Assembly: GCA_964417755.1 (NCBI GenBank)
Contig: CAYQJH010000003.1
Span: forward strand, 1 to 60,573
Reading direction: 5' to 3'
Length of the DNA stretch: 60,573 nucleotides
DNA from: an uncultured Planctomycetaceae bacterium
GTDB taxonomy: Bacteria; Planctomycetota; Phycisphaerae; SM23-33
Part shown: positions 24,401 through 45,953 of the stretch, in pieces
How positions within the stretch are numbered: position 1 is the stretch's first letter
How the letters are laid out: the number at the start of each line of letters is the position of its first letter
The notes under the pieces: model-generated
What the model was told of the DNA's origin: nothing
Seen by the model: the letters and a program-made list of their open reading frames with translations, nothing else
Database searches by the model: none
Made by a program: the position numbers and the translations under genes

Positions 24401-25588
24401 GACCTCGGAAAGTGCCAGTTCCTTCAGGCCGCTGGTGGCGGCTGGAAAGATCTCGCTGGAGCCAGCCGTATTGGTGACGGTGAGTGTCCCTTCCGTCCAG
24501 CGTCCGTTCTCCACGTTGAGCGTGCCCAACTGCCGCATATTGCCTTCGCCCAGCGGCAGTTCGTACTTCAGCGTCAGCGGCGTCTGGCCAAGCACCTTTC
24601 CGCGCAGCGTGATCGTCGCCTGGCCAGGCGCGATCTGCACGTCCCTGACCTCCGGGCCGGTGACGGCCGCACGCTGCGTCTTGTCGGAAAGCAGCAAAAC
24701 TATCTTGTCGGTCGCACTGCCGGCGATGCGGACCTTGAGGGCGGCAGTGACCTGCTGCACGTCGGCATCGATGTTCCAGGCTACATCACCGCTGAGCTCG
24801 TAGCGCACGGGCTTCTCGCTCTGCACTTGCGGGGCGGCGTAGTCTACCTGCAGCGACGAGCGGGGCGAGAGTGCGATCTGCCCGTGTGTGCCGGCTCGGC
24901 TATCGCCGACAATCTGCCGCGGCCAGGCAGGCTCGGTAGAGACCTGCCAAGCCTTGGGTGAGTCAAACACGAAGAACGTTTGAGCCGTTCGCGGGATGGT
25001 CATCTCGAATCGCCCGCCAGGCAGGCTGGCGGTCTGGGGCTTGATCGGCGCGGAGACAGTGATTCTATAAAGGCCGGCCTCGGCAGAGGCATCCAACACC
25101 AGGCAAAGTTGGCCCGCGAGGACAGCAAGTTCGGCCGGTTTGCCATTGACCTGAATATCCTGCCAGGCCAGGTCGGCTCCCAGGAGCGGCAAGGGGCCTT
25201 GCCTGCGCACGCCGGCTGGGTCAAAAACACGCAGCTCGATCTCGGCTGTCAGCCTGGCGGCGCCGTCTGCGGCGACTTCCATATGATACCTGCCGCTGTC
25301 AAGCGCAAAGGCAACCGGGCATGGCCTTTGGGCGGTGCCTCCAGCTTGCGTGTCCAGCAGGAACTGCCGGTAAAGGTCAGCCGGTATGCGGAAATGCGAG
25401 TCCTGCAGCATCCGGCTTCGTTCGAGGAGGGCCTTGACCAAGGCGGCATGCGTTCCATCTGGCGTGAAGACGATGGCCGAGGTTTGGTCCGCAGACCGGG
25501 CCGGCGTCGCCGAAGTGGAAACACGAGCAGCCATGGCAATGGCAATCGTGACTGATAAGGAAGCAGCTATCAGCAGTCCTCGAAGCAT
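21419..25588 (-). CDS. Large exported protein of unknown family with an inserted TPR and a secretin-N-like segment
   Basis: Signal peptide MLRGLLIAASLSVTIAIAMAA after GAGGG. TPR 'ARNYYRKGVELYDKGEYDKAIENFKKVGELAP'. Segment 'VRRYDIRDLI...IIKSITSAIDPQSW...GTLTIIQTGENHEKVAYLLRGLK'. Confidence 0.85.
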   Translation of the reverse strand: MLRGLLIAASLSVTIAIAMAARVSTSATPARSADQTSAIVFTPDGTHAALVKALLERSRMLQDSHFRIPADLYRQFLLDTQAGGTAQRPCPVAFALDSGRYHMEVAADGAARLTAEIELRVFDPAGVRRQGPLPLLGADLAWQDIQVNGKPAELAVLAGQLCLVLDASAEAGLYRITVSAPIKPQTASLPGGRFEMTIPRTAQTFFVFDSPKAWQVSTEPAWPRQIVGDSRAGTHGQIALSPRSSLQVDYAAPQVQSEKPVRYELSGDVAWNIDADVQQVTAALKVRIAGSATDKIVLLLSDKTQRAAVTGPEVRDVQIAPGQATITLRGKVLGQTPLTLKYELPLGEGNMRQLGTLNVENGRWTEGTLTVTNTAGSSEIFPAATSGLKELALSEVRSSAAAILSGPAVMAYEIISREFTASAEVLSLAAGALRQTLADLAHYEVFAQQDGRSLCRVRYEIRNRTRQFLRVDLPAGAMILLARVSDKSCPISPIAGEGGPAALNSYLLPLEKSRSGVLGLVSFPVEIVYLADADAAMRDSQLAVPLPRIDLPIAYAWGEAYLPRNLDLRQWSGPMRPVEQFSSQIAKASLDYGYGELAEAISHVVSPKAAPRPTEAAAAMAATVPMLALSNGQQVSVAAGSQSFTTAAGNMPLAGLLANHDGALAEHAASQPIAGAPLAVVSVPARPSLEMSRAALASSSAAGANSNLNKSGAALLARNYYRKGVELYDKGEYDKAIENFKKVGELAPESNDWSNARNMWTNARSDEDASKLVIPDSGTVMAGGQKVPATAPSGGPGSDSSGVTAARPGGAGEKLAKLEVDKEMSNISRGIQQKQEGLLEEAKKLSASGRLNEAKNTLIAAQEIAHSLNDSKAKDEIIASLEAVRAISKKRATGYRREFEDLKRSGKAAQAMKIGRQLRELDPSALSQKDLDELAVESVRSPENQRGAQPAPNAASQPVSGGKVSAWSADGITSYNAQANWEADIAQSQPSPAGQTFGTVHVAFAPGTSARIRARDRLAPVVRRYDIRDLITNVKDLGGLVNGSQGDGSILTDGTDAGSNADHIIKSITSAIDPQSWQQGSITLDGGTLTIIQTGENHEKVAYLLRGLKETRGPQVEKGFNFAQQQAKGLKLENSGQNAAGDGWAGGSRFPDSVKSSSQIDWQQAREVPDVDRREFARFVESNYDWQLHDDGRKPVAGAFMDDVQVDLLDKLQRNLGQKVSVSSVNFTLTAGAATALGISFQPSANGRATAIIDEAQLRSLIELQAERGQGAWGKRRQDTIVGSDALLANNVISNTVFAGDTYNGLIIEGNTFNLPHDKYILMDNGDSLTAVGAAPMQFWTEAAKDVLAVDVPQNIEVPRLGQVVKFEARLLEPTDDLTLRAGYEERKQ

Positions 25589-25820
25589 ACCGCCCTCGAC
25601 ACGGAAGTCTGGCAACAGTGATACCGTCTGTCAGACGAGCGGCAAAGAGAAAAGTTCCCGCAGCAACAAGCAATCCTTCCGCTGATCAGGCGCCGCCTGG
25701 TGGCTGGCGAGGCCGACCGCCATGGAGCCACGAGAGTCTCGCGACTCCAGGTGCGTCTGCCCTGCCATGTTTGGGCGTGGCCAATTGACAGAGCAAGGCC
25801 ACTGGAGTAAGGTATCGGCC

Positions 25821-26639
25821 ATGAGGCCAAAATGGCTTTTCTCTGTCCGCGGGCGGGTTTCCTTCCCATTGAGTATCGCGATGGGAATCGCACCGATCCT
25901 GGTCCTGCTAGCCGTCTGGTTTCTTCTCACCAGGGGTCCAGTCGAAGAGCGCGCGATCAGTCCGAGTATTCTCCCCAGTCCGTGCGAGGTCTTCAGCCCC
26001 CCCGAGAGTATCCTGCCCCTCTTTCAGGACCGCAACCTGATTCACCATGTTCTTGTCAGTCTCAAACGGGTGGCCGTCGGTTACCTGCTGGCTGTGGCAA
26101 TCACTTTGCCCTTGGGCATCCTGATGGGCAGCTTTGGAGTCGCGCGGGCCATGGGGTCTCCGCTGGCCACCGCCAGCGGCTACATCCCCATTGCCACGCT
26201 GGTGCCATTGACCATGTCCTGGTTCGGCACGGGCGAGCAACAGAAGATCGTCTTCCTGGCCTTGGCGTTCGCAATCTATCTGCTGCCGATGGTGGTCAAG
26301 GCAATCGATGGCGTGTCGGATATCTACGTTCGTACAGCCAGAACGCTAGGCGCGTCGCCATGGCATGTCGTTTGGCGAATCCTTATTCCCATCGCGCTAC
26401 CTGATATCTGGCACGGCATGAGGCTGGCCTTTGGTGTGGGCTGGACGTACCTCGTGCTGGCCGAGGTTGTCGTGATGGCAGATGGCCTCGGGTATCTCAT
26501 AGCGTTTTCGCAGCGGCGCGGACCTCGCGAACATATCTATCTCGTCATCCTGATGATAACGCTGGTGGCTTGGATAGCAGACTTGGGCTGGACGCTGCTG
26601 GGCAAGATATTGTTCCCGTACAAGAGAGGTGAACGATGA
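25821..26639 (+). CDS. ABC transporter permease, NitT/TauT (SsuC-like)
   Basis: 'ISPSILPSPCEV', 'HVLVSLKRVAVGY', the EAA-like loop 'YVRTARTLGAS', 'IPIALPDIWHGMRLAFGVGWTYLVLAE'. Start moved to the ATG at 25821. Confidence 0.92.
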   Translation: MRPKWLFSVRGRVSFPLSIAMGIAPILVLLAVWFLLTRGPVEERAISPSILPSPCEVFSPPESILPLFQDRNLIHHVLVSLKRVAVGYLLAVAITLPLGILMGSFGVARAMGSPLATASGYIPIATLVPLTMSWFGTGEQQKIVFLALAFAIYLLPMVVKAIDGVSDIYVRTARTLGASPWHVVWRILIPIALPDIWHGMRLAFGVGWTYLVLAEVVVMADGLGYLIAFSQRRGPREHIYLVILMITLVAWIADLGWTLLGKILFPYKRGER

Positions 26640-27460
26640 TCGCCGAGACGCCTCTGCCTATTGTCGAGGGACGCGATATCTGCGTCCGCTTTGGGAACTT
26701 CACCGCGCTGCTGGACCTGAATTTCTCCATTCCGGCGACCGAGAAGGGGAATTTCATTACGATCATCGGTCCCAGCGGCTGCGGCAAGAGTACGCTGCTG
26801 AACCTCATCGCCGGCCTGAATGCACCGACTTCCGGCAGCCTGCTGGTTGATGGTCGGCCCATCGATGGTCCCGGCCGTGAACGGGGCATGATCTTCCAGC
26901 AGTACAGTTCGTTTCCGCATTTGAGCGTGTTGCGAAACGTCCTGTTTGGCCTGGAGATCAACGCCGGCGACCTGAAGCTCTCCGCCTCACAGCGCATGGA
27001 CCGCGCGATGCATCTAATCGACGAGGTCGGCCTGGAGGGCCATGAGCACAAGTATCCGCATCAACTTTCGGGCGGCCAGCAGCAACGAGTAGCCATTGCC
27101 CGGACGCTGGCATTGGAACCGCGCATTCTGCTGATGGATGAGCCCTTCTCGGCGCTCGATGAACCGACGCGCCTGGAGATGCAGGAACTGATCGTGGATT
27201 TGTGGGCCCGCATCCACCCGACAATCTTCTGCGTGACGCACAGCATCGCCGAGGCTGTATACCTTGGCGAGCGAGTGTGGATCTTCAGCTTTGCGCCCGG
27301 CCAGATCGCGTACGATATCTCGGATTGTATTCCTCCCTCGCCGGGCGTGCCGCCAAAGGCGGCCCAGGAACAAAGCAATTTCAAACAGGCTGCCGCGATC
27401 GTGGCGGAAGCCTTCAAGAAGGTTTGCGAGATGCGGGCTGCGCCAAGCCGCGCAGGATAG
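26636..27460 (+). CDS. ABC transporter ATP-binding protein, NitT/TauT (TauB/SsuB-like)
   Basis: GPSGCGKST, LSGGQQQR, LLMDEPF, FCVTH. Confidence 0.95.
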   Translation: MIAETPLPIVEGRDICVRFGNFTALLDLNFSIPATEKGNFITIIGPSGCGKSTLLNLIAGLNAPTSGSLLVDGRPIDGPGRERGMIFQQYSSFPHLSVLRNVLFGLEINAGDLKLSASQRMDRAMHLIDEVGLEGHEHKYPHQLSGGQQQRVAIARTLALEPRILLMDEPFSALDEPTRLEMQELIVDLWARIHPTIFCVTHSIAEAVYLGERVWIFSFAPGQIAYDISDCIPPSPGVPPKAAQEQSNFKQAAAIVAEAFKKVCEMRAAPSRAG

Positions 27461-27467
27461 TAATACG

Positions 27468-28367
27468 ATGATGCGAAAGCTCATGGGCTATGTCAGAGCC
27501 GCCTTCAGCGCACGCCCGATAGGGATGCTCGTGCCGCCCAACTGGATTGGCTTAACAGCCTTCGGCCTGCTGGGGTTTATCACGCCGGGATTCTGGTTGT
27601 TGGGGCTGGGAGCGGAGATGGGCTATCTGTATATGATGACCTCCAGCCCACGTTTTCGGCGCTATGTCGATGCAACCTCGCAGGCTAGTGCGCAGCAACA
27701 ATGGCAGAAGAAACTTGCAATGCTGCTGGCACAGTTGAATCATCAGGAGCGCCAGCAGTACGAGGCCCTGGAGGCTCGATGCCGAACGATTCTATCCCAG
27801 CAGATCGATGACCCCGCCAGCGCCGCCCAAGGGCAGGGCCTCAGCCGGTTGCTCTGGATCTACCTGCGCCTACTGCTGACACGTCAATCGATCAAGCATA
27901 TCGTCAGCGAAGCTCAGAGCGCGAGGCCCGGCAACTCTCTCGAAGGGCGCATTGCCAGCCTCCAGAAGCAGTTGGAGAACCAATCGCTTGGCGATGACCT
28001 TCGCAAGAGCCTCACCGGCCAGGTGGAGATTCTGCAACAGCGCCTGGAAGGACAGGAACAAGGCCGGCAGAAGCTCACGTTTCTGGATTGCGAGTTGACG
28101 CGGATCGAGGAACAGGTGGAACTGATTCGTGAACAGGCAGCGCTTTCAGCCGATCCGCAGTCGGTCTCGCAAAGAATAGACCAGGTGGCCGCCAGCCTGG
28201 GCGGCACCACCCAGTGGATTCGCGAGCAGCAGCGGATATACGGACGTGTCGAGGACCTGCTGGTTGAGCCGCCAATGCTCATCAAGACCGAGCCACCACA
28301 TCGTAACCAGGTAACTCCGCCGCCCCTGCCGGCATCGCAGAGGTCCAAAGAAGCCTCCCAGGAATAA
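27468..28367 (+). CDS. Membrane protein with an N-terminal TM hairpin and a long coiled coil
   Basis: Hydrophobic 'NWIGLTAFGLLGFITPGFWLLGLGAEMGYLY' followed by Q/E/L-rich heptads. Coupled to both neighbours (7-bp and 5-bp gaps). Confidence 0.8.
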   Translation: MMRKLMGYVRAAFSARPIGMLVPPNWIGLTAFGLLGFITPGFWLLGLGAEMGYLYMMTSSPRFRRYVDATSQASAQQQWQKKLAMLLAQLNHQERQQYEALEARCRTILSQQIDDPASAAQGQGLSRLLWIYLRLLLTRQSIKHIVSEAQSARPGNSLEGRIASLQKQLENQSLGDDLRKSLTGQVEILQQRLEGQEQGRQKLTFLDCELTRIEEQVELIREQAALSADPQSVSQRIDQVAASLGGTTQWIREQQRIYGRVEDLLVEPPMLIKTEPPHRNQVTPPPLPASQRSKEASQE

Positions 28368-28372
28368 GACCA

Positions 28373-30109
28373 ATGACCACACCTCTTCCCGCATGGGCGC
28401 AGGAGATGGCCGACCTCTTCAGGAGCGGCTCGGTTTCCCAGTTCATTATTCACGGCAACGTCTTTGACCTGGTTCCAGCGACGCTTGGAGAGCCTTCTTC
28501 GGGCAAAAAGATGCTTCCTCTCAAGACATTCCTGAATGACGTCATGTTCGCAGGCTATGACGTGGTTCTCCACTATGATCGCGGCAAGGGGATTCGTGCC
28601 GCTCGTGGCCAGGATGACTGGAATGAATGGTTGAATCAGCTCGGCGGCGATATGCAACTGGCCAGTCAGATTCGAGAGCCAGGCAAAGCGATGGAGTTGA
28701 TTGACCGTTATTTGCTGCGCAGCTTGAACCTGCAGGCCATCAATCCGGGCGGCAATCCACCGCGGAAGATCGCTGTCATCATTGATTTCGCCGAGTTCGT
28801 TGTCCCGCAGGGGCAGGCACTCCAATTGGGTGGCGAATTCAGCGCGAACGTTGTCAAACTTCTAGGGTGGGCGAACGACCCGGCCATCCTCCAATCGAAC
28901 ATCGTCACCGTCCTGCTGACCGAAGGGCTGCACGATCTCAACAGCCTGGTCATCGAGAACCCGCACTCTTCGAAGCTGCGCATCGCCTTGCCCGACGAGC
29001 AGGACATGCTCAACTACCTCAACCTGCTCGTCAGCCAGAATTTTCCCAACCTGCCTGATCAATGCGATGTGCCGCTGGAAGCTTTGGCCAGGCGGCTGAC
29101 GGGGCTTAGCCATGTTGGCGCGCTGACGCTTATCAGCAGGGCCTTGAACAATGGAAAGCGCCTTACGGATGCATTTCTGCGGCAGGTGAAGAAGGACATG
29201 ATCGAGAGAGAGTGCCAGGGGCTGCTGGAGTTTCTCGAATCGCCCTTCACGCTGGACAACGTCGCCGGTCATGCCGCGGTAAAGCAATGGCTGCGGGAGG
29301 ACGCGGCACTCCTAAAGCGAATGGCCTACCATGCATTGCCCATGGGCTACCTGATCTGCGGGCGGATCGGCACGGGCAAGACGTTCATCGTGCAATGCTG
29401 GGCCGGAGAACTCGGCGTGCCTTGCGTGGTATTCAAGAACTTCCGCGACCGCTGGGTTGGCGCGACCGAGTCGAACCTGGAGAAGATATTCGCGATCCTT
29501 CGGGCCTTGGGACAAGTCGTCGTGTTCGTGGACGAGGCCGACCAGGCCGCCGGCAAGCGAGAGGGTGATGGCGGCGATAGTGGTCTATCCGGCCGCGTCT
29601 ATGCCATGCTTGCCAAAGAGATGTCCGATACGCGCAATCGCGGGAAGATCGTGTGGGTCTTTGCAACGAGCCGGCCGGACTTGCTGGAGGTGGACCTCAA
29701 GCGCCAAGGTCGGCTGGATGTGCATATTCCGTTGTTCGCGCCCGAGACATCCGCGGAAGTGAGAGAGTTGCTGCTTTCGGTGGCCAGGAAGCTGAAGTTT
29801 CCCCTGAAGGAGAGCGACCTGCCGGACTTGGCAGAGAAGGTGGTACTCGGGGGCAATGAGATTGAGGGTATGCTCGTCCGTGCTCTGCGGAACTACGAAC
29901 TATGCCCCGAGCCGCGGAAGGCTTTGCGCGAGATTCTGGCCGTCGTAGCGGCCGAGATTCGGCCAAGTGCTCATACGCGCAAGCTGGAGTACATGGATCT
30001 GGTAGCTGTAAGAGAATGCACCGATGGCAGATTTCTTCCCGAGCGATTCTCATCCTTCACACCAGAGGAGATCGAGAATCGCATTAATGATCTACGAAGG
30101 TTTGCGTAA
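28373..30109 (+). CDS. AAA+ ATPase (classical clade) with a degenerate N-terminal AAA-like domain
   Basis: Walker A GRIGTGKT, pore loop RDRWVGATE, Walker B VVFVDEAD and SRH 'ATSRPDLL..DLKRQGRLD'. The N-terminal half has decayed motifs (IIHGNVFD, VIIDFAE). Confidence 0.93.
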   Translation: MTTPLPAWAQEMADLFRSGSVSQFIIHGNVFDLVPATLGEPSSGKKMLPLKTFLNDVMFAGYDVVLHYDRGKGIRAARGQDDWNEWLNQLGGDMQLASQIREPGKAMELIDRYLLRSLNLQAINPGGNPPRKIAVIIDFAEFVVPQGQALQLGGEFSANVVKLLGWANDPAILQSNIVTVLLTEGLHDLNSLVIENPHSSKLRIALPDEQDMLNYLNLLVSQNFPNLPDQCDVPLEALARRLTGLSHVGALTLISRALNNGKRLTDAFLRQVKKDMIERECQGLLEFLESPFTLDNVAGHAAVKQWLREDAALLKRMAYHALPMGYLICGRIGTGKTFIVQCWAGELGVPCVVFKNFRDRWVGATESNLEKIFAILRALGQVVVFVDEADQAAGKREGDGGDSGLSGRVYAMLAKEMSDTRNRGKIVWVFATSRPDLLEVDLKRQGRLDVHIPLFAPETSAEVRELLLSVARKLKFPLKESDLPDLAEKVVLGGNEIEGMLVRALRNYELCPEPRKALREILAVVAAEIRPSAHTRKLEYMDLVAVRECTDGRFLPERFSSFTPEEIENRINDLRRFA

Positions 30110-30115
30110 GAAGCC

Positions 30116-30763
30116 ATGGGACTACTGCAGAATTTGACGAAGATGGGTGGGCGGCTTGGCATCCTGAAGATCGTCTCCACAACGGCTACGGCGCCTCCGG
30201 GCAGGATTCCGACGCGCAAGCTGACTCTCAAGGAATTGATGACCGAGATCCGCACGCAACAGGTTGAGACGCTCGCGCAGTGCCCGGCGGAATTGTCTGT
30301 CGATTTTGCCAGGCTCTTTGAGTCCGCGGGCATCAAGACGCCTCCGACGGGCTGGACGATCCAGAAGCTGATCGAGACATTGCGATCAGATGCATGCAAG
30401 GGCCTCAGTCGCGAAGAAACTCAGAAGGCCATCCTCGCCGAAATCTCAAAAGACCAGGCGCATGTTCATGACGTGGTGGCCGATGGTATTGCACGCGACC
30501 AGGCCTTAGATGCCTTCGAGGTCTTTGCCCGCAAGAAGTTTGACGAGCGCGTGTCCCTTTGCCAGAGCAGGAAAGCGGAACTGCAGGCGCAGATTCATGA
30601 TCTCCAGCAGCAGATCGAACGCCTGGATGGCCAGGCCGCGAGCGACAAGGCACACTGGAAACAGTGGCATGATCACAAGATCCAATATGAAAAAGATATG
30701 GCCTGGGCCATCGGGTTCCTGCTCGATAAAGCCACAATTACTGTTGATCATGATCATGCGTGA
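30116..30763 (+). CDS. Hypothetical helical/coiled-coil protein
   Basis: Starts 6 bp after the ATPase. Amphipathic N-terminus MGLLQNLTKMGGRLGILKIV and a C-terminal heptad stretch RKAELQAQIHDLQQQIERL. Confidence 0.8.
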   Translation: MGLLQNLTKMGGRLGILKIVSTTATAPPGRIPTRKLTLKELMTEIRTQQVETLAQCPAELSVDFARLFESAGIKTPPTGWTIQKLIETLRSDACKGLSREETQKAILAEISKDQAHVHDVVADGIARDQALDAFEVFARKKFDERVSLCQSRKAELQAQIHDLQQQIERLDGQAASDKAHWKQWHDHKIQYEKDMAWAIGFLLDKATITVDHDHA

Positions 30764-30892
30764 GATGACAATGCGCTGCGTCTTTGCGGCGCCGGCGTGC
30801 CACTGTAGCCCAGCCGCTCCCGGCTGGGCAGGGATGCAATAGCATCCTAGTCAGCCAGCGCAGATCGATTCGCAAGAGGAAAGGAAAGCATT

Positions 30893-31639
30893 ATGGGGCT
30901 TTTTTCGCGTGTTGGACGGCTGTTCCGCGGTTTCTTTGGTTTGTTCATCAGCGGGATAGAAGATCGCAATCCAGAGGCTTTGATGGAAGCAGCCAAGCAA
31001 GACTTCCGCACTCGCATGGCCCACTACAACGAGGCATTGGCGCGAATGGCCGGAATCGCCGAGCGGCTCAAGAGCCAGATTAAAATGAAGACAGTCCGCG
31101 CCCAGGACCTTGAGCGGCGAATCATGGCCAACCACCAGGCCGGCAATATGGAACTGGCTGGCAGCCTGGCCAGAGAACTCCAGGAACTCAAGGGCGACTT
31201 GAGCACTGATACACAAGAACTGGCTGAGACCGAGGAGGCCTACCAAGCCAACCTGCGCCAGGCGAAGGTCGCTCAGAAGGAATTCGAGGACAAGATCATC
31301 CGCTTGGAGCGGCAGCTTTCCCAGGTGAAAGTAAAGGAAGCGCAGAGCGAAGCTGCCGCCGGGCTGAACAACGTCGCCTTTAGCGTCGGGGACCTGGGCG
31401 ACACGATGAAGACTGTCGAAGAAGTACTCAACAAGCGATATGAGATGTCCGCCGGCAAGGCGCGCCTGGCGAAGGACATGGTCAACATGGACAAGGTCCA
31501 GGAGAAAGAGAACGAACGCAAGGCCCTCGAGCAGTCGGCACTGGCGGAGTTTCTGGCCAGCCAAGGCATCGCCGCAACCGCCGCTGTCCCTCAGGCCGCG
31601 CCGGCAGTCAAGGAGATCGGGCCCATGAAACAGGGGTAG
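30893..31639 (+). CDS. pspA: PspA/IM30 (Vipp1) family protein
   Basis: Amphipathic helix 0 MGLFSRVGRLFRGFFGLFIS, an 'EDRNPEALMEAA' motif, a long helical hairpin with 'AGNMELAGSLAREL', and C-terminal 'ALAEFLASQG'. RBS AAGGAAAG. Confidence 0.9.
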   Translation: MGLFSRVGRLFRGFFGLFISGIEDRNPEALMEAAKQDFRTRMAHYNEALARMAGIAERLKSQIKMKTVRAQDLERRIMANHQAGNMELAGSLARELQELKGDLSTDTQELAETEEAYQANLRQAKVAQKEFEDKIIRLERQLSQVKVKEAQSEAAAGLNNVAFSVGDLGDTMKTVEEVLNKRYEMSAGKARLAKDMVNMDKVQEKENERKALEQSALAEFLASQGIAATAAVPQAAPAVKEIGPMKQG

Positions 31640-31777
31640 GCTCGGCACGCGAGGCACAGCTCTTGAGGCCGGGGGCAACTGCTGCTTGCATATCTCCCGC
31701 CGCAGGGCAATGCCTCGAATATCGGGAACCAGGTCTTTTCAGAATATTCATCCACCACGGCAATCACGAGGTGAAAC

Positions 31778-33493
31778 ATGGCAGAGGAAGGCGCTCGTTT
31801 AACAATGTTTGGAAAGCTCCTGTCGATCGTGCTGATACTTGCGCTGGTCGGCGGCGGGTTGTACATGGTCCTCAACAAGTTCAACATCCTGGGCAGATCG
31901 CAACAGGCTGCCGCTCCGCAGGCGCCGGCTCCGGTGGTCGAGGCTGCCGATACATCCGGCGTGACCACGGTGCGCGAGTACAAGTACATCCCGGCAGAGC
32001 GCCTGCCGGCGGTCAAAGGCGTCAGCCAGTACAAGTGGGACAATAACAACAAGATCGTCCGCTTCTCGTACAATGTCTGGGCCGGGTGGCTGCCAATCAT
32101 CGCCGCCAATCATGGCACCAAGCCCAACCCTGAGAGCATCTTCGCCAAGAAGTACGGCTTCCAGGTTGAACTGGTACTGATCGACGATCCAGTGGCCGCC
32201 CGTGACGCGTTTGCAGCCGGTGACGTTCATACGTTGTGGGGCACCGAGGACATGTTCGTCCTGTTCGCTCCGGAACTTATGCGCGATTCGCGGTCCTCGC
32301 CGCGCATCGTCCAGCAGATCGACTGGTCCAACGGCGGCGACGGCATTGTCGTGCGCTCTCACATTAAGTCCGTCGCGGACCTCAAGGGCAGGACCGTTGC
32401 GTACGCGCTCAATTCACCCAGTGAATACTACCTGACCTCGCTCCTGCTCTCGGCGGGCCTGACACCGGCCGACATCAAGTCCAAGCACACGGCCACGGCC
32501 TTTGAAGCGGCTGCGGCATTTGTTTCCGACAAGAGCATCGACGCCTGTGTTTCCTGGGCGCCGGACATCTATCGCATACCCGAGAAGGTGCCCAACACCA
32601 AGATTCTCTCCAGCACGGCAGACGCCAATAAGCTCATTGCGGATGTCTACGCCTTCCGGGCCGATTTTGCCAAGGATCATCCCGAGATCGTCGAGGCCAT
32701 GGTGGCAGGTGTCTTCGAGGGCATGGACCTGGTGAAGGCAGACCCCGAGCAGGCCTGCAAGTGGATGGCGGAAGCATTCGGCATAAAGGTCGAGGAAGCC
32801 ATCTCGATGCGCAATGACGCCCATCCCACCAACTTCGCAGAGAACGTTCAGTTCTTCCTGAATTCCTCGAACCCGACTAACTTTGAACGAACGTGGAAGA
32901 ATGCCACAAACGTCTATCAGCAGTTGCGGCGAATCGACAAGGTCATCCCGTTCGAGCAGTTGATGGATTTCACGCACATCCAGGCGATAGACAAGAAGGG
33001 AACCTTCGCCCACCAGCAGGATGAGAGCGTGGCGAAGTTCACGCCGGGCAGTTACAAGTCCATCAAGGCTGAGTCGCCTCTGCTGACGCAGACCATCCGG
33101 ATCAACTTCTTCCCGAATTCATCCAACCCGTTCGAGGCAGCCCGCGACGAGCGAGGCAATGCGGTAGCCGGCAAGCTCTATGACCCTAATGTCGCAGCCA
33201 CCCTGGAAGAGGTCGCCCGGCTGTCGGGGCAGTTTGCGCGGGCCGTCATCCTCATCGAAGGCCATACCGATTCCAGCATGAAGGGGCGCGTGCCTGTCCA
33301 GGCGGTGAAGGATCTTAGCCTCTCGCGAGCGGAGGCCATCCGAAAGGCCCTGATTGAGAAGTACAAATTCGATCCGAACAAGTTCGTCATTGAAGGCAAG
33401 GGATGGGACGTGCCAGCCGACGCGAAAGATGCCGAGAATCAGGCTCTAAATCGGAGGGTGGAGATCAGTGTATTCCCGCCCGAACAACAGTAA
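31778..33493 (+). CDS. Membrane-anchored NMT1/THI5/SsuA-type substrate-binding protein fused to a C-terminal OmpA-like domain
   Basis: N-terminal TM (LLSIVLILALVGGGLYMVL). SBP motifs WAGWLP, DWSNGGDGIV, SVADLKGRTVA, SPSEY, ACVSWAP, LIADV. OmpA-C motifs 'IEGHTDS...LSLSRAEAIRKAL...GKG...NRRVEI'. Confidence 0.9.
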   Translation: MAEEGARLTMFGKLLSIVLILALVGGGLYMVLNKFNILGRSQQAAAPQAPAPVVEAADTSGVTTVREYKYIPAERLPAVKGVSQYKWDNNNKIVRFSYNVWAGWLPIIAANHGTKPNPESIFAKKYGFQVELVLIDDPVAARDAFAAGDVHTLWGTEDMFVLFAPELMRDSRSSPRIVQQIDWSNGGDGIVVRSHIKSVADLKGRTVAYALNSPSEYYLTSLLLSAGLTPADIKSKHTATAFEAAAAFVSDKSIDACVSWAPDIYRIPEKVPNTKILSSTADANKLIADVYAFRADFAKDHPEIVEAMVAGVFEGMDLVKADPEQACKWMAEAFGIKVEEAISMRNDAHPTNFAENVQFFLNSSNPTNFERTWKNATNVYQQLRRIDKVIPFEQLMDFTHIQAIDKKGTFAHQQDESVAKFTPGSYKSIKAESPLLTQTIRINFFPNSSNPFEAARDERGNAVAGKLYDPNVAATLEEVARLSGQFARAVILIEGHTDSSMKGRVPVQAVKDLSLSRAEAIRKALIEKYKFDPNKFVIEGKGWDVPADAKDAENQALNRRVEISVFPPEQQ

Positions 33494-34262
33494 TATCCGA
33501 GCGTTGGCCAAAGTTGCATTGTTCTGCCTGGCGTTGGTGATCTTCCTTATCGTCAAGGCCATGGACTCAAATGGACCCCAGACCGCGAGCCATCGATCTT
33601 CAGTCAACCCAATCGAACAGGAGCTTCAGCCACGAGGATCAATCCAACGGAAAGAAGGAATCGCGGTCGCCGTCCTGATTGATTCATCCGGGAGTATGAG
33701 CGACAGTGTTACGGGCTCAGGCGGGCAGCCGACCCAGAAAATGGAAATAGCCCGGCGCTGTCTGCTTGCCCTTATCAAACAGGCAGACGACTTCGCTTCC
33801 AATAACGATGAACGTCCCTTACTTCTAGGCGTCTACGAGTTCTCCAGCCGCGATCGCGGCAGTGTCTGCCGCAATGTTGTCCCGATTGGCCGCCCAAATG
33901 CTGCTGCCGCGCTACCTCTTGTTCGATCAATGTTCCCACAAGGCAACACGCCGATTGGCGATTCCATGATAACTGCCTATAAGGACCTCGCCGCCACTGG
34001 CATGAGCCGGCTACACATCCTTGTGATAACCGACGGCGAAAACAATCATGGCTATGCTCTGGCGGATGTGGTTTCGGCGATAAGCCGACTGAACGAAGTT
34101 GACCGCCCGGCCATGTATTTCCTGGCCTTCGATATCGCAGAACGGTTATTCGCGCCGCTGCGTGATTCAGGCGCCATGGTTCTGTCGGCATCCAATGAAG
34201 CGGATCTCCATCAGACCCTGAATTACATTCTTACTGGCAAGATTCTCGCAGAGCAGCCATAG
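33468..34262 (+). CDS. Membrane-anchored von Willebrand factor A (vWA) domain protein
   Basis: TM 'VALFCLALVIFLIV', MIDAS 'VLIDSSGSMS', 'QGNTPIG' and 'ILVITDGENN'. Start uncertain. Confidence 0.85.
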   Translation: MYSRPNNSNIRALAKVALFCLALVIFLIVKAMDSNGPQTASHRSSVNPIEQELQPRGSIQRKEGIAVAVLIDSSGSMSDSVTGSGGQPTQKMEIARRCLLALIKQADDFASNNDERPLLLGVYEFSSRDRGSVCRNVVPIGRPNAAAALPLVRSMFPQGNTPIGDSMITAYKDLAATGMSRLHILVITDGENNHGYALADVVSAISRLNEVDRPAMYFLAFDIAERLFAPLRDSGAMVLSASNEADLHQTLNYILTGKILAEQP

Positions 34263-34342
34263 AAGTCCAGACGCAGTTGGAGCACTGTAGGCTTGCCTGT
34301 TGACTCACCTTGGCGAGGACTTTTCCGAAGGGGTGAACACAG

Positions 34343-35116
34343 ATGGCTGAACCAACACTGGCGATGCACGCCCTGACCAAGCTATACGGCGGCTTTACAG
34401 CCGTCAGCGACTTGCATCTGGAGATCGCGCCGGGTGAGCTTTTTGCCCTTCTGGGGCCCAATGGCGCTGGCAAGACCACAACTATCCGGATGCTGATGGG
34501 GATATTAAAGGCCACGTCCGGAACGGCGAGCGTTCACGGCCTGGATTGCTTCCGCCAGCGAGCGCAGGTAATGCGGCACGTCGGCTATGTGCCGGATGAG
34601 CCCATCTTCTATGACTACCTGAAGGGCCGCGAGATCATCCAGTTTGTCGGCCAGATGCACGGCCTGGCGATGGAGACCATCGCGGAGATAGCTGATCCGC
34701 TCAGCAAGCAACTGAGCCTGGATGATGCGCTCGATGAATATGCGGTGAATTATTCCCGCGGCATGAAGAAGAAGCTCGCCATCATCTGCTCGCTGCTGCA
34801 TGAACCGACGCTGTGGGTTCTCGACGAGCCGACCAACGGCCTGGACCCGTTTGCTACTCGCCAAGTGCACGCACTGATGCGCTCCAGGATTGCGGCTGGG
34901 CGAAGTGTCTTCTTCAGCACTCATCTGCTCGACCAGGCGCAGAAGCTCTGCGACCGCGTAGGGATGTTGTTCAAGGGCCGTCTGGCGGCCATAGGACGGC
35001 TGGACGAGTTGCAGTCCGCTTCGCAGAACACGTCGCTTGAGGAGATCTTCTTTGCGGTGGCCGACGAGGCCGGCGGCAGCACCAATGGCGGCGACAAAGG
35101 GCCAACCGTAGCGTGA
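34343..35116 (+). CDS. ABC-2 type exporter ATP-binding protein
   Basis: GPNGAGKTT, YSRGMKKK signature, VLDEPTNGLDP, FSTHLL. Confidence 0.93.
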   Translation: MAEPTLAMHALTKLYGGFTAVSDLHLEIAPGELFALLGPNGAGKTTTIRMLMGILKATSGTASVHGLDCFRQRAQVMRHVGYVPDEPIFYDYLKGREIIQFVGQMHGLAMETIAEIADPLSKQLSLDDALDEYAVNYSRGMKKKLAIICSLLHEPTLWVLDEPTNGLDPFATRQVHALMRSRIAAGRSVFFSTHLLDQAQKLCDRVGMLFKGRLAAIGRLDELQSASQNTSLEEIFFAVADEAGGSTNGGDKGPTVA

Positions 35117-37785
35117 ACGTCCAGCCTCCCAGTCCGGTGAAAGTTCTGCGGCTGCTGGCCCGCCAAGGTTGGCGGCGGCTGTCGCGCCGGTGGGCGCTGC
35201 AGATCGCGATTCGGCGGGCGAAACGCAAAGCGGCCGCCGGCCGGCAATCGACACGGCGAGTCAACATGCCGGGGCAGGTCTGGTCGATCCTGATGGGCCT
35301 GCTGATGATGGCGAGCGTAGCAGGCGTTTCTTATCAATTCTGCCTTGCGCTCTGCCTTCAGGAGCGTCCCGATAGTGCCGGCCGGATCGGCATCGACCGC
35401 TACACATACGAGCAGATGCTTTCGTTTGAGAAGCTCTGCGCCACCTCAAAGCCCGCCGACTCTTCGACTCGTCCCACCAGCCAGACCGAATTCGACTCCG
35501 CCGATCTTAGGATGGAGATAAATCCTGTGCCGGCCACATCACCCACAAATCCCCAGGCCCGCTTGATCGCCCAGCGAGGGTTGGTTCATTCCCTTCTGCA
35601 GATTGAGGGCCAAGACCGGGTGATGAGGAATCTGGAACCTGGCAGTTTCAGCGCCAAGACTGAACAGGAATGCCAAAAGCTCAAGGATCAATTTGATCGA
35701 CTCGGCTCGGCGGGGTTCTTCATCAAGGAGAAGAAGCCGTTCGCGATGCACCTGAGCGTTGACGATGCACCGTCCGTCGCGTGGATGCTGCAGATCATTG
35801 CACTGGGGCTGCTGCTGTTCTTCTTCGGGATGCAGAACCAGGACCTCGGCAAGGTGGGCTGGAACATGGAGTGGCTCTTCAGCTTCCCCATAGAAAGCCG
35901 CGTCTTGCTGGGCGCACGGATCATGGAGCGCACGCTCGCCAGCAGCGGCTGGATCATCATCTGGCCGTTCCTGTCCACTGTCTTGTGGCTCGCAGGTCTG
36001 GGCGCGTGGGGCATCCTGGTGGCAGCCGCTGCCACAATTTACATCAACCTGCTGGTTGCCTGCGCCGAACTTCTGATCGAGACGTGGCTGCGGCGGACGT
36101 TCTCACTTGCCGCAATCAAGAACTTCCAGGCCCTTTTCAGCATCGTTGCCATGGCCATGATGCTAATAGTGTACGTTCCATTTGCGCATGCCAAGCTGGC
36201 GCACTTTGCGCGGGCGCTGCCCGGCATTTGGCGAGAAGTACCGATGTGGCTGCCGGCGGGCCTGCCGGCGGTGTTTGTCACCGGCGCCGGCCAGGCATTG
36301 CCGGCGGTCTTGACGATCATCGTCTGCGGTGTGGTCGCCTTCGTGGCAGCAACCGAGTGCAGCCATCGCATGATCCTTCCCGGCTTGATTAGCCAGACCG
36401 GGCCTCTTCAGGGCCGTCGTGGGCGAGAAGCCCAGCCCGCCAGGCGCATGCCAGTTCTACGCGGCATCATCGGCAAGGAACTGCGCCTGCTGCTGCGCGA
36501 CCGGAACTTCTTCGCCCAGGCGATCATCGTGCCGGCCATGATCGTGCTGATGCAATACTTCCTTAATCGCGGGCACATGGCCGCCATCAGTAACGACTTC
36601 CGCCACGTCGCCGCCATGGCCTTTGCCATAAGCGGCTATGTGCAGTTGTTCGGGGCCTCCCGCGTGCTGGTGGCCGAGGGCAGCACCCTTTGGCTGCTGT
36701 ACACCTTCCCGCGCAGCCTGCACGAGCTGCTCAGGCGCAAGGCCCGCCTGTGGGCGGTCGTGGGGGCGTGCTTCACGCTGGCTGTGCTGGCGGCAGGGTG
36801 GGCAGGGTCTCCTACGCCCACCTGGCAGAAGGCCATCTTCTGTGCGGTGGCGCTGGGTGAGGCCTGGATCTTCTCCTTGATTGCGGCCGCCCTCGGCACG
36901 CTTGGGACCAATGCTTTCGAAGAGGATATCCAGCGAAAGTTGAAGACCGGCATGGTGGCTTCGCAGATGGCAGTGTTGGCGATAATGACGGGTAGCTTCT
37001 ACGTCCCGACATGGTTGCAGTCGGTCGCGATGCTCGTCCTGTGCCTGGTGCTGTGCAAGGCTCTTTGGGACAAAGTCGCCGACCGCATTGCATATCTGCT
37101 GGAGCCGGCGGAACGCCCGCCGCCGGCCATCTCGCTGTCAGACGCCTTGACGGCGGCCTTCGCATTCTTTGCCCTGCAGGTCTTCGGATTCATCCTGCTA
37201 CGCCATGGGATACAGCTCGACGTCGATGTCTCGGTCGTGCTCTCGTACCTGCTGGCGGCAGTGATAGCGGTAGCTGCAACGCAGCTCGTATTTCGCATGA
37301 GGGGAATTGCGCCGACGATTATCCCCAAGGCGACGCTCAGGTCCATCTTGAGCGGGCTGGCATGGGCTGCTCCGGCCATCATTGCTGCCGTCGCATACCT
37401 CGCACTGGTGCATCAGGTACCCGCCTTTCGAACGTGGCTGGAGCAGACACAAGACATAATCGGCAGCCTGAAGCCCGGCAGCATCTACCTGGCGGTGCTG
37501 GCTGTCATCATCGCGCCTCCACTGGAGGAGTACATCTTCCGAGGCCTGGTGCTGAAGGGCATGCTGCGAAGGATGAAGCCGCCGGCCGCGATTGTGGGCA
37601 GCGCCGCGCTCTTTGCAGCCGTACATCCTTCGATCTCCATCATCCCGGTCTTTGGGCTGGGGCTGGCGACAGCCATTGCGTACCACCGAACCGGCCGCCT
37701 AGCTGCACCCATCGCTGCACACATGCTCTACAACGCTGCCGCGATCGCAGCCTCGATGTGGTTTGGGAATCTTCCCGTTCGATAA
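35113..37785 (+). CDS. ABC-2-type permease fused to a C-terminal CPBP (CAAX/Abi) intramembrane metalloprotease
   Basis: Many TM helices and a second permease half starting 'IIGKELRLLLRD'. C-terminal EEYIFRG, FAAVH and HMLYN motifs. Overlaps the ATPase stop by 4 bp. Confidence 0.85.
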   Translation: MNVQPPSPVKVLRLLARQGWRRLSRRWALQIAIRRAKRKAAAGRQSTRRVNMPGQVWSILMGLLMMASVAGVSYQFCLALCLQERPDSAGRIGIDRYTYEQMLSFEKLCATSKPADSSTRPTSQTEFDSADLRMEINPVPATSPTNPQARLIAQRGLVHSLLQIEGQDRVMRNLEPGSFSAKTEQECQKLKDQFDRLGSAGFFIKEKKPFAMHLSVDDAPSVAWMLQIIALGLLLFFFGMQNQDLGKVGWNMEWLFSFPIESRVLLGARIMERTLASSGWIIIWPFLSTVLWLAGLGAWGILVAAAATIYINLLVACAELLIETWLRRTFSLAAIKNFQALFSIVAMAMMLIVYVPFAHAKLAHFARALPGIWREVPMWLPAGLPAVFVTGAGQALPAVLTIIVCGVVAFVAATECSHRMILPGLISQTGPLQGRRGREAQPARRMPVLRGIIGKELRLLLRDRNFFAQAIIVPAMIVLMQYFLNRGHMAAISNDFRHVAAMAFAISGYVQLFGASRVLVAEGSTLWLLYTFPRSLHELLRRKARLWAVVGACFTLAVLAAGWAGSPTPTWQKAIFCAVALGEAWIFSLIAAALGTLGTNAFEEDIQRKLKTGMVASQMAVLAIMTGSFYVPTWLQSVAMLVLCLVLCKALWDKVADRIAYLLEPAERPPPAISLSDALTAAFAFFALQVFGFILLRHGIQLDVDVSVVLSYLLAAVIAVAATQLVFRMRGIAPTIIPKATLRSILSGLAWAAPAIIAAVAYLALVHQVPAFRTWLEQTQDIIGSLKPGSIYLAVLAVIIAPPLEEYIFRGLVLKGMLRRMKPPAAIVGSAALFAAVHPSISIIPVFGLGLATAIAYHRTGRLAAPIAAHMLYNAAAIAASMWFGNLPVR

Positions 37786-44285: not shown

Positions 44286-45953
44286 TCAATGATCGTGGCT
44301 GGCGGCTTCGAGGACTTCGTGTGCCTGGAAACTGCTGCGGACAAAGGGGCCGGCAGCCACCGCGGCAAAGCCTATTTCCAGAGCCTGCAACTTCCACCGC
44401 TTGAATTGAGAAGGCGGAATATACTCCGCCACCGGCAACTTACTGGCTGAGGGACGAAGATACTGGCCGATGGTAAGAATGTCACAGCCGGCTTGGCGAA
44501 GGTCGCACATGACCTCGAGCACTTCATTGTCGCGCTCGCCCAGGCCGACCATCAGGCCGCTCTTGATGTGCGCGGTACGGTTCGCACTCTGTGCCACCTG
44601 CCGGGCACATCGCAAGACGCCGAGGCTTTGCTCATAATCCGCCTGTGGGCGAACCTGCGCGTAGAGGCGCGGCACGGTCTCGATGTTGTGGTTGAACACA
44701 TCGCAGCCGGCGCGAATTACCACTTCAACCGATTCAGCCCTGCCTTGAAAATCCGGCGTAAGAACCTCGATTGTAACGTGAGGCTTTGCGGGCGGGACGC
44801 CCGCACCACAAGCAGGCGAGACGCCTGCGCCACAATTGTGTCGAACGCCTGCACTACACCGCCGCACGGCATCGATTACCGAGGCGAATTGGCCTGCGCC
44901 GCCGTCGGGCAGGTCGTCCCGCGTGACGCTGGTGATCACCACGTGTTGCAGGTGCAGCGCCTGGCAGGCGCGGGCGACGGCGGCCGGCTCGTTGTCATCA
45001 ACCGGCTCGGGCTTGCCCTGCTGCACCGCGCAGAATTGGCACGAGCGCGTGCACGAGCGGCCGAGGATCATAAAGGCTGCCGTGCCCGCAGCCCAACAGT
45101 CCGCGCGATTGGGACAGCGAGCCTCGCCGCAAACAGTCGCCAGATTGAGGTCTCGCAAGATGCGCTCGACAGCCGGCCGGCGCGCCAACGGTGCAATCGG
45201 CTTGGCCAGCCAGGCCGGCAAACGCTGCCGTGCCGTTTGAATCCGCTGGGCACTTGTAACGGGCTGGATGGCATGACACTGTTCAACATCTTCAAAAGCA
45301 CAGGTGCGGATGGACTGAAACTGTGTCGCTTGTGCGAAGGCTTGCACTGCTGCCGAGAGCACTTGCCCAACTGCTATCGCTCTGCCGAGGATGCCCGCCA
45401 TGCTGGCGACCTTTCGGCCGCGCAGGCCGCACGGGATGATCAGGTCGAAATGATCCATCTTCGGGCAGACGTTGATCGCCAGGCCGTGATAGGCGACCCA
45501 TCGGCTGACGGCAACGCCAATGGCGGCAATCTTTCCCTGGTCTGTCCAGACGCCGGTGAGCTTGTCCATTCGCCGCCCGGCAATGTTGAATCGGTCAAGT
45601 AAGACGATGACAGCCTGCTCCAGGTTGTGAATGTATAGCCGCAGGCCGCCCCGACGGTCGATCCGCATGATCGGGTAGAGCACCAGTTGTCCCGGGCCAT
45701 GATAAGTCACGTCTCCGCCGCGTGAAGCAGGGCGAACGGAAATGCCCAGTTCCGCAAGGCGATTCGGCGAAGCCAGGATGTTTCCGTGATTCGCATTTCG
45801 CCCAAGCGTGATGATCGGCGGGACGTGCTCGACGCTCAGCAGGAATGCCCGACTAGGCTGAGCCTGTACCATACCGACCAGCCGCTGCTGGATATCAAGT
45901 GCGGCATCATAGTCCAGACGGCCCAGGGGAATGTGGATGAGTTCGTTGAGCAT
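44286..45953 (-). CDS. lipB-lipA: Fused lipoyl(octanoyl) transferase LipB - lipoyl synthase LipA
   Basis: LipB: EHVPPIITLGR, RGGDVTYHGPGQLVLYPI, KIAAIG, HGLAIN, IIPCG. LipA: VCGEARCPNRADCW (CX4CX5C), CTRSCQFC (CX3CX2C), HNIETV, KSGLMVGLGE, TIGQYL, GPFVRSS. Confidence 0.93.
   Translation of the reverse strand: MLNELIHIPLGRLDYDAALDIQQRLVGMVQAQPSRAFLLSVEHVPPIITLGRNANHGNILASPNRLAELGISVRPASRGGDVTYHGPGQLVLYPIMRIDRRGGLRLYIHNLEQAVIVLLDRFNIAGRRMDKLTGVWTDQGKIAAIGVAVSRWVAYHGLAINVCPKMDHFDLIIPCGLRGRKVASMAGILGRAIAVGQVLSAAVQAFAQATQFQSIRTCAFEDVEQCHAIQPVTSAQRIQTARQRLPAWLAKPIAPLARRPAVERILRDLNLATVCGEARCPNRADCWAAGTAAFMILGRSCTRSCQFCAVQQGKPEPVDDNEPAAVARACQALHLQHVVITSVTRDDLPDGGAGQFASVIDAVRRCSAGVRHNCGAGVSPACGAGVPPAKPHVTIEVLTPDFQGRAESVEVVIRAGCDVFNHNIETVPRLYAQVRPQADYEQSLGVLRCARQVAQSANRTAHIKSGLMVGLGERDNEVLEVMCDLRQAGCDILTIGQYLRPSASKLPVAEYIPPSQFKRWKLQALEIGFAAVAAGPFVRSSFQAHEVLEAASHDH
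44787..44858 (-). repeat. In-frame REP-like palindromic insertion in lipA (72 bp)
   Basis: TGTAGTGCAGGCGTT..., TGTGGCGCAGGCGTCTCGCCTGC and TGTGGTGCGGGCGTCCCGCCCGC encode CSAGVRHNCGAGVSPACGAGVPPA. The same element occurs intergenically at 54242 and 59233. Confidence 0.85.

Follow-up and report, generated by a model that had tools for sequence, protein, structure and literature searches.

The window analysed here, a 60,573-nt stretch of DNA from an uncultured Planctomycetaceae bacterium (contig CAYQJH010000003.1, assembly GCA_964417755.1), carries an operon in which a gene of the PspA/Vipp1 type is encoded close to a classical-clade AAA+ ATPase. The ten co-oriented genes of this region are designated g1–g10 (Table 1). 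The conserved unit is g1–g8, at approximately 25722–34262 of the window, and its conserved core consists of four genes, coding for a membrane-anchored coiled-coil protein (g3), the ATPase (g4), PspA (g6) and a protein with a substrate-binding protein (SBP)-like and an OmpA domain (g7). We propose that g1–g8 form a single envelope-associated PspA machine whose ATPase would remodel PspA polymers, an evenly balanced proposal in which the contacts and their direction are what we infer. Its observed basis is the gene content, the domain identities, the catalytic motifs, the co-conservation in at least five phyla and an extreme sequence constraint.

All ten open reading frames (ORFs) lie on the forward strand and Pfam backs each domain call, which bears out the co-orientation, domains and tight spacing described in an earlier sequence-only reading of the same DNA. 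The successive intergenic spacings from g1 to g10 are −4, 7, 5, 6, 129, 138, −26, 80 and −4 nt, with gaps of 5–7 nt from g2 to g5 making the core genes nearly contiguous. Since the spacers measure at most 138 nt, there are no further genes inside the operon. None of the ten products matched PspB, PspC or PspF in Pfam or NCBIfam, in agreement with the earlier claim that these partners are absent from the operon. A sigma-54-dependent activator with an XylR_N sensor domain is encoded about 7 kb upstream (17034–18656, +). It is not of the PspF type, and the DNA lying between it and the operon includes a flanking ORF of 1398 aa on the opposite strand, without Pfam match (21419–25615, −).

For comparison, 80 related loci were fetched from one-genome-per-species contigs, which were searched with all ten window proteins. 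The loci originate from Planctomycetota, Acidobacteriota, Gemmatimonadota, Binatia and Gamma- and Betaproteobacteria metagenome-assembled genomes (MAGs), and the denominators given for gene presence (71, 65, 60, 51 and 43) count only loci with enough flanking DNA. The g3 gene was found directly upstream of the ATPase gene in 66 of 71 loci (39–61% identity), PspA at most 1.2 kb downstream of it in 59 of 65 (69–82% identity) and g7 downstream in 53 of 60 (23–79% identity). The von Willebrand factor A (vWA)-domain gene g8 is a frequent accessory gene, present downstream in 33 of 51 loci (33–59% identity). Directly downstream of the ATPase, g5 occurred in 26 of 71 loci (32–51% identity), while g1 was located near the ATPase in 15 of 43 (49–68%) and g2, counted at identities of at least 55%, in 14 of 43 (62–75%). 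About 25 of the 43 long-flank loci contain the SBP-like/OmpA protein without any ATP-binding cassette (ABC) transporter.

An all-against-all clustering of the ORFs in the 80 loci served as an unbiased check of the gene content. The recurrent families were the core, the vWA gene, g1, g2, g5 and a flavin amine oxidase of about 490 aa (21 loci); other recurrent clusters, which overlap conserved genes in antisense or in a different frame, are taken to be shadow ORFs. Because the g1–g8 arrangement recurs across phyla, it is far beyond chance. The co-conservation in the related loci thus supports the linkage, first read from the window, of PspA to a dedicated classical-clade AAA+ protein, a membrane coiled-coil protein and an SBP–OmpA protein.

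In contrast to g1–g8, the last two genes do not belong to the system. Neither g9 nor g10 was present in any of the 51 loci with sufficient downstream sequence, and both are missing from the two nearest relatives (with 78% and 74% ATPase identity), in which the shared synteny stops after the vWA gene and continues with a GGDEF/HDOD gene in one case and a transposase in the other. They are for these reasons excluded and represent a separate exporter unit of known type: g9 matches NCBIfam drrA (E 6e-62), g10 matches ABC_perm_CPBP (NF041647, E 2e-19), and the pair has the same architecture as NF041647 permease/CPBP units with a DrrA-type ATPase. The sequence-only reading had described a ten-gene operon and proposed a neighbourhood survey of orthologues as a check. 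In that survey co-conservation was found for the core and g1–g8 recurred across phyla, whereas the inclusion of g9–g10 has to be given up.

Two variants of the operon can be distinguished. Variant A, the type seen in the window, occurs in Planctomycetota and some Acidobacteriota and carries g1, g2, g5 and a g7 of 64–79% identity. The genes g1, g2, g5 and the variant-A form of g7 co-occur in 14 of 14 cases, and in some genomes (loci L009, L018 and L027) g1–g2 are placed after the vWA gene. Variant B, found in Acidobacteriota, Gemmatimonadota, Binatia and Gammaproteobacteria, is devoid of g1, g2 and g5 and has a g7 of only some 27% identity, whose SBP-like part hardly matches SBP models. Many Acidobacteriota of this type encode the flavin amine oxidase (about 490 aa, twin-arginine signal TRREMLQ) between g7 and the vWA gene; its occurrence in operons without an ABC importer hints at an amine as the periplasmic cue. 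A minimal form in Gemmatimonadota comprises g3, g4, PspA and g7, followed by the housekeeping genes mutS2 and dnaG. As the ABC importer is missing from variant B and from the minimal form, it is accessory, and the SBP-like/OmpA protein has a role for which transport is not needed. Of the ABC/SBP unit initially proposed, the SBP–OmpA protein therefore remains as part of the core, while the first ABC pair and g5 turned out to be accessory genes of about one third of the loci. The special significance that had been attached to a planctomycete host is not upheld either, as conservation of the system is just as strong in Acidobacteriota, Gemmatimonadota, Binatia and Proteobacteria.

Some individual loci deviate from this arrangement. 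In L037, L038, L053 and L078, all Phycisphaerae/Tepidisphaeraceae MAGs, the ATPase is 63–70% identical and no partner gene was found in the flanking DNA fetched; these genomes may have a split operon. In the closest relative (L081:5005-6737), the SBP and OmpA parts are two separate gene calls of 398 and 178 aa, reflecting either a real split or a frameshift. The relative L082 features a MoxR-DUF58-vWA (Bat-like) cluster upstream of the operon (1–3532) and transposase and serine recombinase genes directly downstream of it (15943–18824).

Sequence comparison confirmed g6 as a member of the PspA/IM30/Vipp1 family. The protein scored 39.7 bits against PspA_IM30 over residues 2–216, which is above the gathering score of 33.9, and among PDB chains its residues 1–234 align with residues 1–231 of Synechocystis Vipp1 (sll0617; E 9.4e-6). 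The N-terminal amphipathic helix (alpha0) is MGLFSRVGRLFRGFFGLF, and MGLFSRVGRLFRGFFGLFISG is kept in all orthologues of g6; a membrane-binding role is predicted for it from the sequence. Orthologues are 67–82% identical across phyla, and conservation extends along the full length, which is unusual for the PspA family. At the C-terminus, behind a variable Ala/Pro-rich linker, the protein ends in a K-E-I-G-P motif. The pattern K-[EDQ]-[IM]-G-P was present in 58 of 58 family sequences among those listed, making the motif a candidate docking tag.

The motifs read from the g4 sequence place it in the classical clade of AAA+ proteins, with intact Walker A (G330–T337, including K336) and Walker B (D387–E388) motifs, aromatic pore loop 1 (W361-V362-G363) and second-region-of-homology arginines (R444 and R447); the sensor-1 position is occupied by S433. 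K336, D387/E388, W361-V-G, R444 and R447 are invariant across the family alignment. In the PDB, the D2 domains of VAT, Cdc48 and p97 gave the best matches (E 1e-35), and the 60 best matches listed (E 1.1e-35 to 4.6e-20) include no chain under the name Vps4. The NCBIfam models rank in the order CDC48, FtsH, PAN and CdvC, all far below their cut-offs (68 bits against 803 for CDC48, 36.2 against 650 for CdvC), and neither a MIT nor a Vps4_C domain was detected with Pfam. These results rule out g4 as a Vps4 orthologue and indicate a distinct family inside the classical clade. The Vps4 parallel drawn in the sequence-only reading thus holds for the clade but not for membership of the Vps4 family.

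Residues 1–290 of g4 are conserved as strongly as the active domain. In a permissive local alignment (hhalign -mact 0.1) this N-domain is colinear with the strand motifs of AAA domains, with a match that is not statistically significant. In the same non-significant alignment FIIHGNVFD falls at the Walker A region, VIIDFAEF at Walker B and VTVLLTEG at sensor 1, and LRIALP-DEQDM aligns with VHIPLFAP-TSAEV (the 'hIPLP-d..e' element). A search of PDB sequences with the N-domain profile returned nothing, and hhalign of the N-domain against the C-domain gave a probability of at most 0.5%, even after addition of 26%-identical Firmicutes homologues. The published label 'inactive AAA + AAA' is therefore plausible for g4 on the strength of the colinear motif pattern alone.

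Relatives of the ATPase number in the thousands and are 63–78% identical across phyla. Mean pairwise identities are 64–70% between most phylum groups (71–73% between Acidobacteriota and Gemmatimonadota) and about 70–80% within groups, with 90% and 93% in the two-member groups of Binatia and Gammaproteobacteria. The flat inter-phylum range of 64–70% points to an old, strongly constrained protein and not to recent lateral spread. It also argues against a mobile element, a possibility that was rejected; the plasmid matches are distant relatives in other contexts. Such full-length relatives, 26% identical and likewise of two-domain layout, are encoded on megaplasmids of Paenibacillaceae, where no PspA is annotated in the vicinity. 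Two of them (L086 and L087, Table 1) retain the motifs of the N-domain as well as the C-terminal ECxD..FLP motif, and have genes for an SLT transglycosylase, ArdA and DUF262 as neighbours. A link to Ycf46 was dismissed, the name being found in a JGI annotation string and a literature search giving nothing that joins Ycf46 and Vipp1. A defence system was likewise rejected, as PADLOC gave merely a generic IetA AAA similarity and PspA had no phage match.

The start of g3 at 27468 (299 aa) fits the lengths of homologues and independent gene calls. The protein consists of an N-terminal amphipathic helix, a hydrophobic helical hairpin and a helical domain, and its AlphaFold2 (AF2) model is all-helical with a predicted local distance difference test score (pLDDT) of 82.5. 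Best conserved is the N-terminal region, which runs from Y8..AAFNARP..M..PPNW into the hairpin; there the buried Glu50 shows 89% conservation, and basic residues lie on both sides. We read this arrangement as a hairpin inserted from the cytoplasmic side, which would leave the coiled-coil domain in the cytoplasm together with the ATPase and PspA. Clustering at 50% identity in a library of 1.84 billion proteins yielded 1480 representatives of the g3 family.

No match was found for g3 in Pfam or NCBIfam, and neither Snf7 nor PspA was matched by Pfam in 26 and 65 family members, with E values of up to 5 and 1 admitted. Searched against PDB sequences, a profile built from 65 diverse members retrieved no ESCRT-III, CHMP or Vipp1 chain; its only match was the coiled coil of the unrelated pneumococcal surface protein A (E 0.003). 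Comparison with the PspA family of the operon by hhalign gave probabilities of 0.7–2.4%, the same as for controls, and a Foldseek search with the AF2 model placed no ESCRT-III fold in the top 50 (all E >0.4). A divergent Snf7/ESCRT-III protein was hence rejected, since no signal over coiled-coil noise was obtained in hidden Markov model, profile–profile or fold comparisons.

The g7 product is a bitopic periplasmic protein with a transmembrane (TM) helix at about aa 10–32 (window 31805–31873), an SBP-like domain at about aa 95–350, which also matches SsuA_fam and urea-type SBP models, and an OmpA-like peptidoglycan-binding domain at aa 470–556 (nt 33185–33445) that keeps the NRRVEI signature. 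Its TM helix holds Lys/Arg and small-xxx-small motifs, and the pattern T-x-[LF]-G-[KR]-..-S-..-L-.-.-G-L-...-G-x-Y is kept in both variants despite an identity of about 27%. That the TM helix is conserved while the periplasmic part diverged suggests an intramembrane partner that is conserved as well. In both g3 and g7, conservation is highest in the membrane segment, the hairpin and the TM helix respectively, and the hairpin is the sole other conserved membrane element of the core, which suggests a contact between g3 and g7 within the membrane.

With g1 and g2, g7 makes up what appears from its family matches to be a complete NitT/TauT-type (taurine/sulfonate/nitrate) ABC importer set. The permease g1 matches the NCBIfam SaoP and TauC models and g2 a taurine-type ATPase (E 1.7e-60); all importer matches of g1, g2 and g7 are below the equivalog cut-offs. 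The helical protein g5 starts with an amphipathic helix at its N-terminus, continues with a disordered linker and a small helical domain, and has a helix of 84 residues (AF2 pLDDT 80). It has no significant fold or family match and no detectable relatives beyond its own family, and comparison with the PspA family led to its rejection as a PspA paralogue. The last gene of the conserved unit, g8, encodes a protein with an N-terminal anchor and a complete DSSGS motif of the metal ion-dependent adhesion site (MIDAS) type.

Parts of this system have been described before. Ravi et al. (mSystems 2024, PMC11237479; preprint 2020) reported the co-occurrence of PspA with a protein of two AAA+ domains, the N-terminal one inactive, proposed an ATP-dependent remodelling of PspA comparable to Snf7/Vps4, labelled the membrane partner 'SIG+TM+Snf7' and noted a tie between remodelling and solute transport. 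Their operon type, exemplified in their Table S3 by OGG56892.1 of Candidatus Handelsmanbacteria, shares with the window PspA, a SIG+PBPB+OmpA protein, a permease, an ABC ATPase, a membrane-anchored helical protein and the two-domain AAA+ protein. Its gene order is circularly permuted relative to the window, which adds g5 and the vWA gene, and the Snf7 call for the membrane protein was not reproduced here. The window operon is the same system; the functional proposal of Ravi et al., arrived at independently, agrees with ours, and the supposition of the sequence-only reading that comparative surveys had listed such neighbourhoods has proved right. Popp et al. (2022) did not report this system, Liu et al. 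(2021) posed the Vps4-equivalent for PspA/Vipp1 as an open question, and according to a 2025 review a Vps4-like ATPase appears to be absent from bacteria. Our full-text literature searches returned no experimental study of the ATPase–PspA pair, as had been stated from the outset. The present analysis adds the core of four genes, the two variants, the amine oxidase exported by Tat, the C-terminal motif of PspA, the conserved g3 hairpin and g7 TM helix, and the doubt on the Snf7 assignment.

According to the mechanism proposed here, g3 and the TM helix of g7 would form a membrane platform fixed to the cell wall, at which PspA would assemble on the membrane via its N-terminal amphipathic helix. 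The ATPase, as a hexamer, would engage PspA, plausibly by the K-E-I-G-P tail on its flexible linker, and could thread or extract PspA subunits via the W-V-G pore loop, so that ATP would be spent on disassembling, recycling or reshaping the polymer. In function the ATPase would in this way be analogous to Vps4 in its action on ESCRT-III. The SBP-like domain of g7, on the periplasmic side, would couple remodelling to a solute or to the state of the envelope. In variant A the same domain may also feed the NitT/TauT-type importer, for which g5 would be an adaptor in the cytoplasm; in variant B the place of the importer is taken by the Tat-exported flavin amine oxidase. The more far-reaching form of this proposal, an ancient and dedicated ATP-driven bacterial machine for PspA remodelling in which the ATPase would recognise the K-E-I-G-P tag and recycle the polymer on a platform of g3 and g7, the latter as a peptidoglycan-tethered periplasmic sensor, is put forward tentatively and falls a little short of an even chance.

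Several observations weigh against a PspA-remodelling ATPase. The protein is devoid of the MIT domain, by which Vps4 reaches ESCRT-III, and is nearer to Cdc48/VAT D2 and FtsH than to Vps4/CdvC. It stands without any partner gene in four of the 80 loci, and its plasmid-borne relatives without annotated PspA show that PspA specificity is not intrinsic to the fold. In the region, promoter- and terminator-like sites are no more frequent than expected by chance. In the Psp response, PspA binds and inhibits the AAA+ protein PspF, and regulation could accordingly run from PspA to the ATPase. Furthermore, PspA rods have a weak ATPase activity of their own and Hsp70 handles Vipp1, so that a dedicated unfoldase is not obligatory. 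Several of these points are shared by the main rival, in which g4 would be an extractase or quality-control unfoldase for membrane proteins (Msp1-, FtsH- or Cdc48-like), tethered by g3, while PspA would seal or stabilise the bilayer as extraction proceeds, or regulate the ATPase. The best matches to Cdc48/VAT D2 and FtsH instead of Vps4, the missing MIT domain, the ATPase relatives lacking PspA on plasmids and in the four loci, and the PspF precedent of an AAA+ ring inhibited by PspA are all in line with it. Yet the neighbourhood has neither a conserved protease domain or partner nor an obvious conserved client, and the extreme co-conservation together with the C-terminal tag of PspA is most simply explained by a direct contact between PspA and the ATPase. 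We consider this rival unlikely.

Whether the cluster centres on solutes instead, with amine- or sulfonate-type uptake or oxidation as its function and PspA, the ATPase and g3 as an attached envelope-stress module that would protect the membrane or regulate the transporter, in place of a general remodelling machine, can be judged from the variants. Variant A has the complete NitT/TauT-type importer (g1, g2, g7), in 21 variant-B loci the Tat-exported flavin amine oxidase adjoins the SBP-like protein, and remodelling has been tied to solute transport (Ravi et al., PMC11237479). The importer is dispensable, however, which weakens a solute-centred function: it is missing from about two thirds of the loci, the minimal form of Gemmatimonadota manages with g3, g4, PspA and g7, and the SBP-like domain of variant B barely matches SBP models. 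Moreover, the ATPase and PspA, and not the transport parts, are the most constrained, and we regard this possibility as distinctly improbable. Least probable of all, in our view, is a bacterial ESCRT-III pair as put forward by Ravi et al. (2024), with g3 as a divergent Snf7 that is anchored in the membrane and would polymerise jointly with PspA, and with the resulting heteropolymer as the target of remodelling by the ATPase. The published 'SIG+TM+Snf7' label and an all-helical g3 adjoining the ATPase in 66 of 71 loci speak for such a pair, which is weakened by the negative outcome of all tests of g3 for a Snf7/ESCRT-III signal, by Pfam, PDB profile, hhalign and Foldseek alike.

Compared to the ESCRT-III/Vps4 system (CdvB/CdvC in archaea), the window likewise encodes a polymer protein of the superfamily beside a classical-clade AAA+ protein with a translocating pore loop. 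The short conserved C-terminal motif of PspA on a flexible linker has the same layout as the MIM tails of ESCRT-III, which is an analogy and not evidence of binding. The two systems differ in that the window ATPase lacks MIT and Vps4_C and has an extra N-terminal, apparently degenerate domain, and in that its polymer protein is of the PspA/Vipp1 instead of the Snf7 type. ESCRT-III also has no counterpart of the peptidoglycan-anchored periplasmic partner.

The classical Psp systems (E. coli pspF-pspABC, B. subtilis liaIH, M. tuberculosis clgR-pspAMN) similarly combine a PspA protein bearing an amphipathic helix with a small membrane anchor, although the likeness of the anchor to PspB/C, LiaI or PspM is conceptual, and in Proteobacteria an AAA+ protein is associated with PspA as well. 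In contrast, the window is devoid of PspB, PspC, PspF, LiaI and PspM domains, and its AAA+ protein is an unfoldase-type member of the classical clade that has no DNA-binding domain and is no sigma-54 activator. Cdc48/p97/VAT proteins are the nearest sequence relatives of the active g4 domain (D2, E 1e-35) and share its tandem-domain layout, but g4 lacks the double-psi-barrel N domain and its first domain has no nucleotide-binding motifs.

Table 1 Features of the operon and of related loci. Coordinates are window positions unless a locus is named; residue numbers (aa) refer to the respective protein
Feature	Position	Strand	Description
g1	25722 or 25821..26639	+	BPD_transp_1 permease, Pfam E 2.8e-17; two possible starts, 25821 being that of the sequence-only reading
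g2	26636..27460	+	ABC_tran, E 3.6e-33; ABC importer ATP-binding subunit
g3	27468..28367	+	Membrane-anchored coiled-coil protein, 299 aa; no Pfam match
g3 hydrophobic hairpin	aa 26-58 (nt 27543-27641)	+	Predicted helices aa 26-38 and 42-58, N-P-G turn
g4	28373..30109	+	Two-domain AAA+ ATPase, 578 aa; AAA PF00004 at residues 327-453, E 5e-23
g4 N-domain	aa 1-290 (nt 28373-29242)	+	Resembles a degenerate AAA domain without Walker A lysine
g4 active classical AAA domain	aa 291-578	+	Complete classical AAA+ module
g5	30116..30763	+	Helical protein, 215 aa; no Pfam match
Two adjacent hairpins	30808..30848	+	Within the 129-nt g5-g6 spacer
g6	30893..31639	+	PspA/IM30 family (ESCRT-III superfamily), 248 aa; PspA_IM30
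g6 K240-E-I-G-P244 motif	31610-31624	+	C-terminus, behind variable Ala/Pro-rich linker
g7	31778..33493	+	NMT1/SsuA-type SBP (NMT1 E 4.9e-12) and OmpA (E 1e-9)
g8	33468..34262	+	vWA-domain protein; VWA, E 2e-5
g9	34343..35116	+	DrrA-type ABC ATPase; ABC_tran
g10	35113..37785	+	Multi-TM permease fused to C-terminal Rce1-like/CPBP intramembrane protease domain
Flavin amine oxidase	L039:14354-15832		Also in 20 other variant-B loci, e.g. L024, L048, L049, L062
Distant g4 relative	L086:4989-6566		Aneurinibacillus plasmid NZ_CP116888.1
Distant g4 relative	L087:4986-6602		Paenibacillus thiaminolyticus plasmid

The g5–g6 spacer contains two adjacent hairpins, of which the first has a perfect 9-bp stem (30808–30829, GCCCAGCCG-ctcc-CGGCTGGGC) and the second a stem of 7 bp. 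The folding of the spacer is not significant compared to shuffled sequences (z −1.58), the hairpin sequence is unique in the window, and neither a T tract nor an Rfam match was found in the spacer. On its downstream side, the operon is flanked by a 1835-aa ORF with cadherin-like/Big_9 repeats (38585–44092, +). Elsewhere in the window, an ORF of 2797 aa was found at 4706–13099 (+), followed by two tandem acetate kinase paralogues (13159–15546, −), the downstream one of which (375 aa) is a far weaker and partial match (E 5.9e-29, compared to 3.1e-112 for the other paralogue). A single ORF at 44286–45953 (−) with the catalytic domain of lipoyl/octanoyl transferases and a lipoyl synthase radical-SAM domain is an apparent LipB–LipA fusion. 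The G + C content is 52–56% at 1–12000 and 54001–56000, compared to 60–63% over most of the window; these stretches may be foreign or compositionally distinct.

Taken together, no better genomic candidate for the Vps4-equivalent partner of PspA/Vipp1 is currently available than this operon family. It is widespread, with about 1500 g3 cluster representatives at 50% identity in several phyla, and is under unusually strong constraint. The compact four-gene core is suited to reconstitution, by which an acknowledged open question becomes directly testable. If the ATPase remodels PspA, ATP-driven ESCRT-III dynamics would extend to bacteria, with a recognition that works without a MIT domain. Nucleotide-driven dynamics of the ESCRT-III type would then not be restricted to archaea and eukaryotes, and would have arisen independently or earlier with a Cdc48-like ATPase devoid of MIT. 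If the ATPase does not remodel PspA, a very conserved machine would have a different, equally uncharacterised function in the cell envelope.

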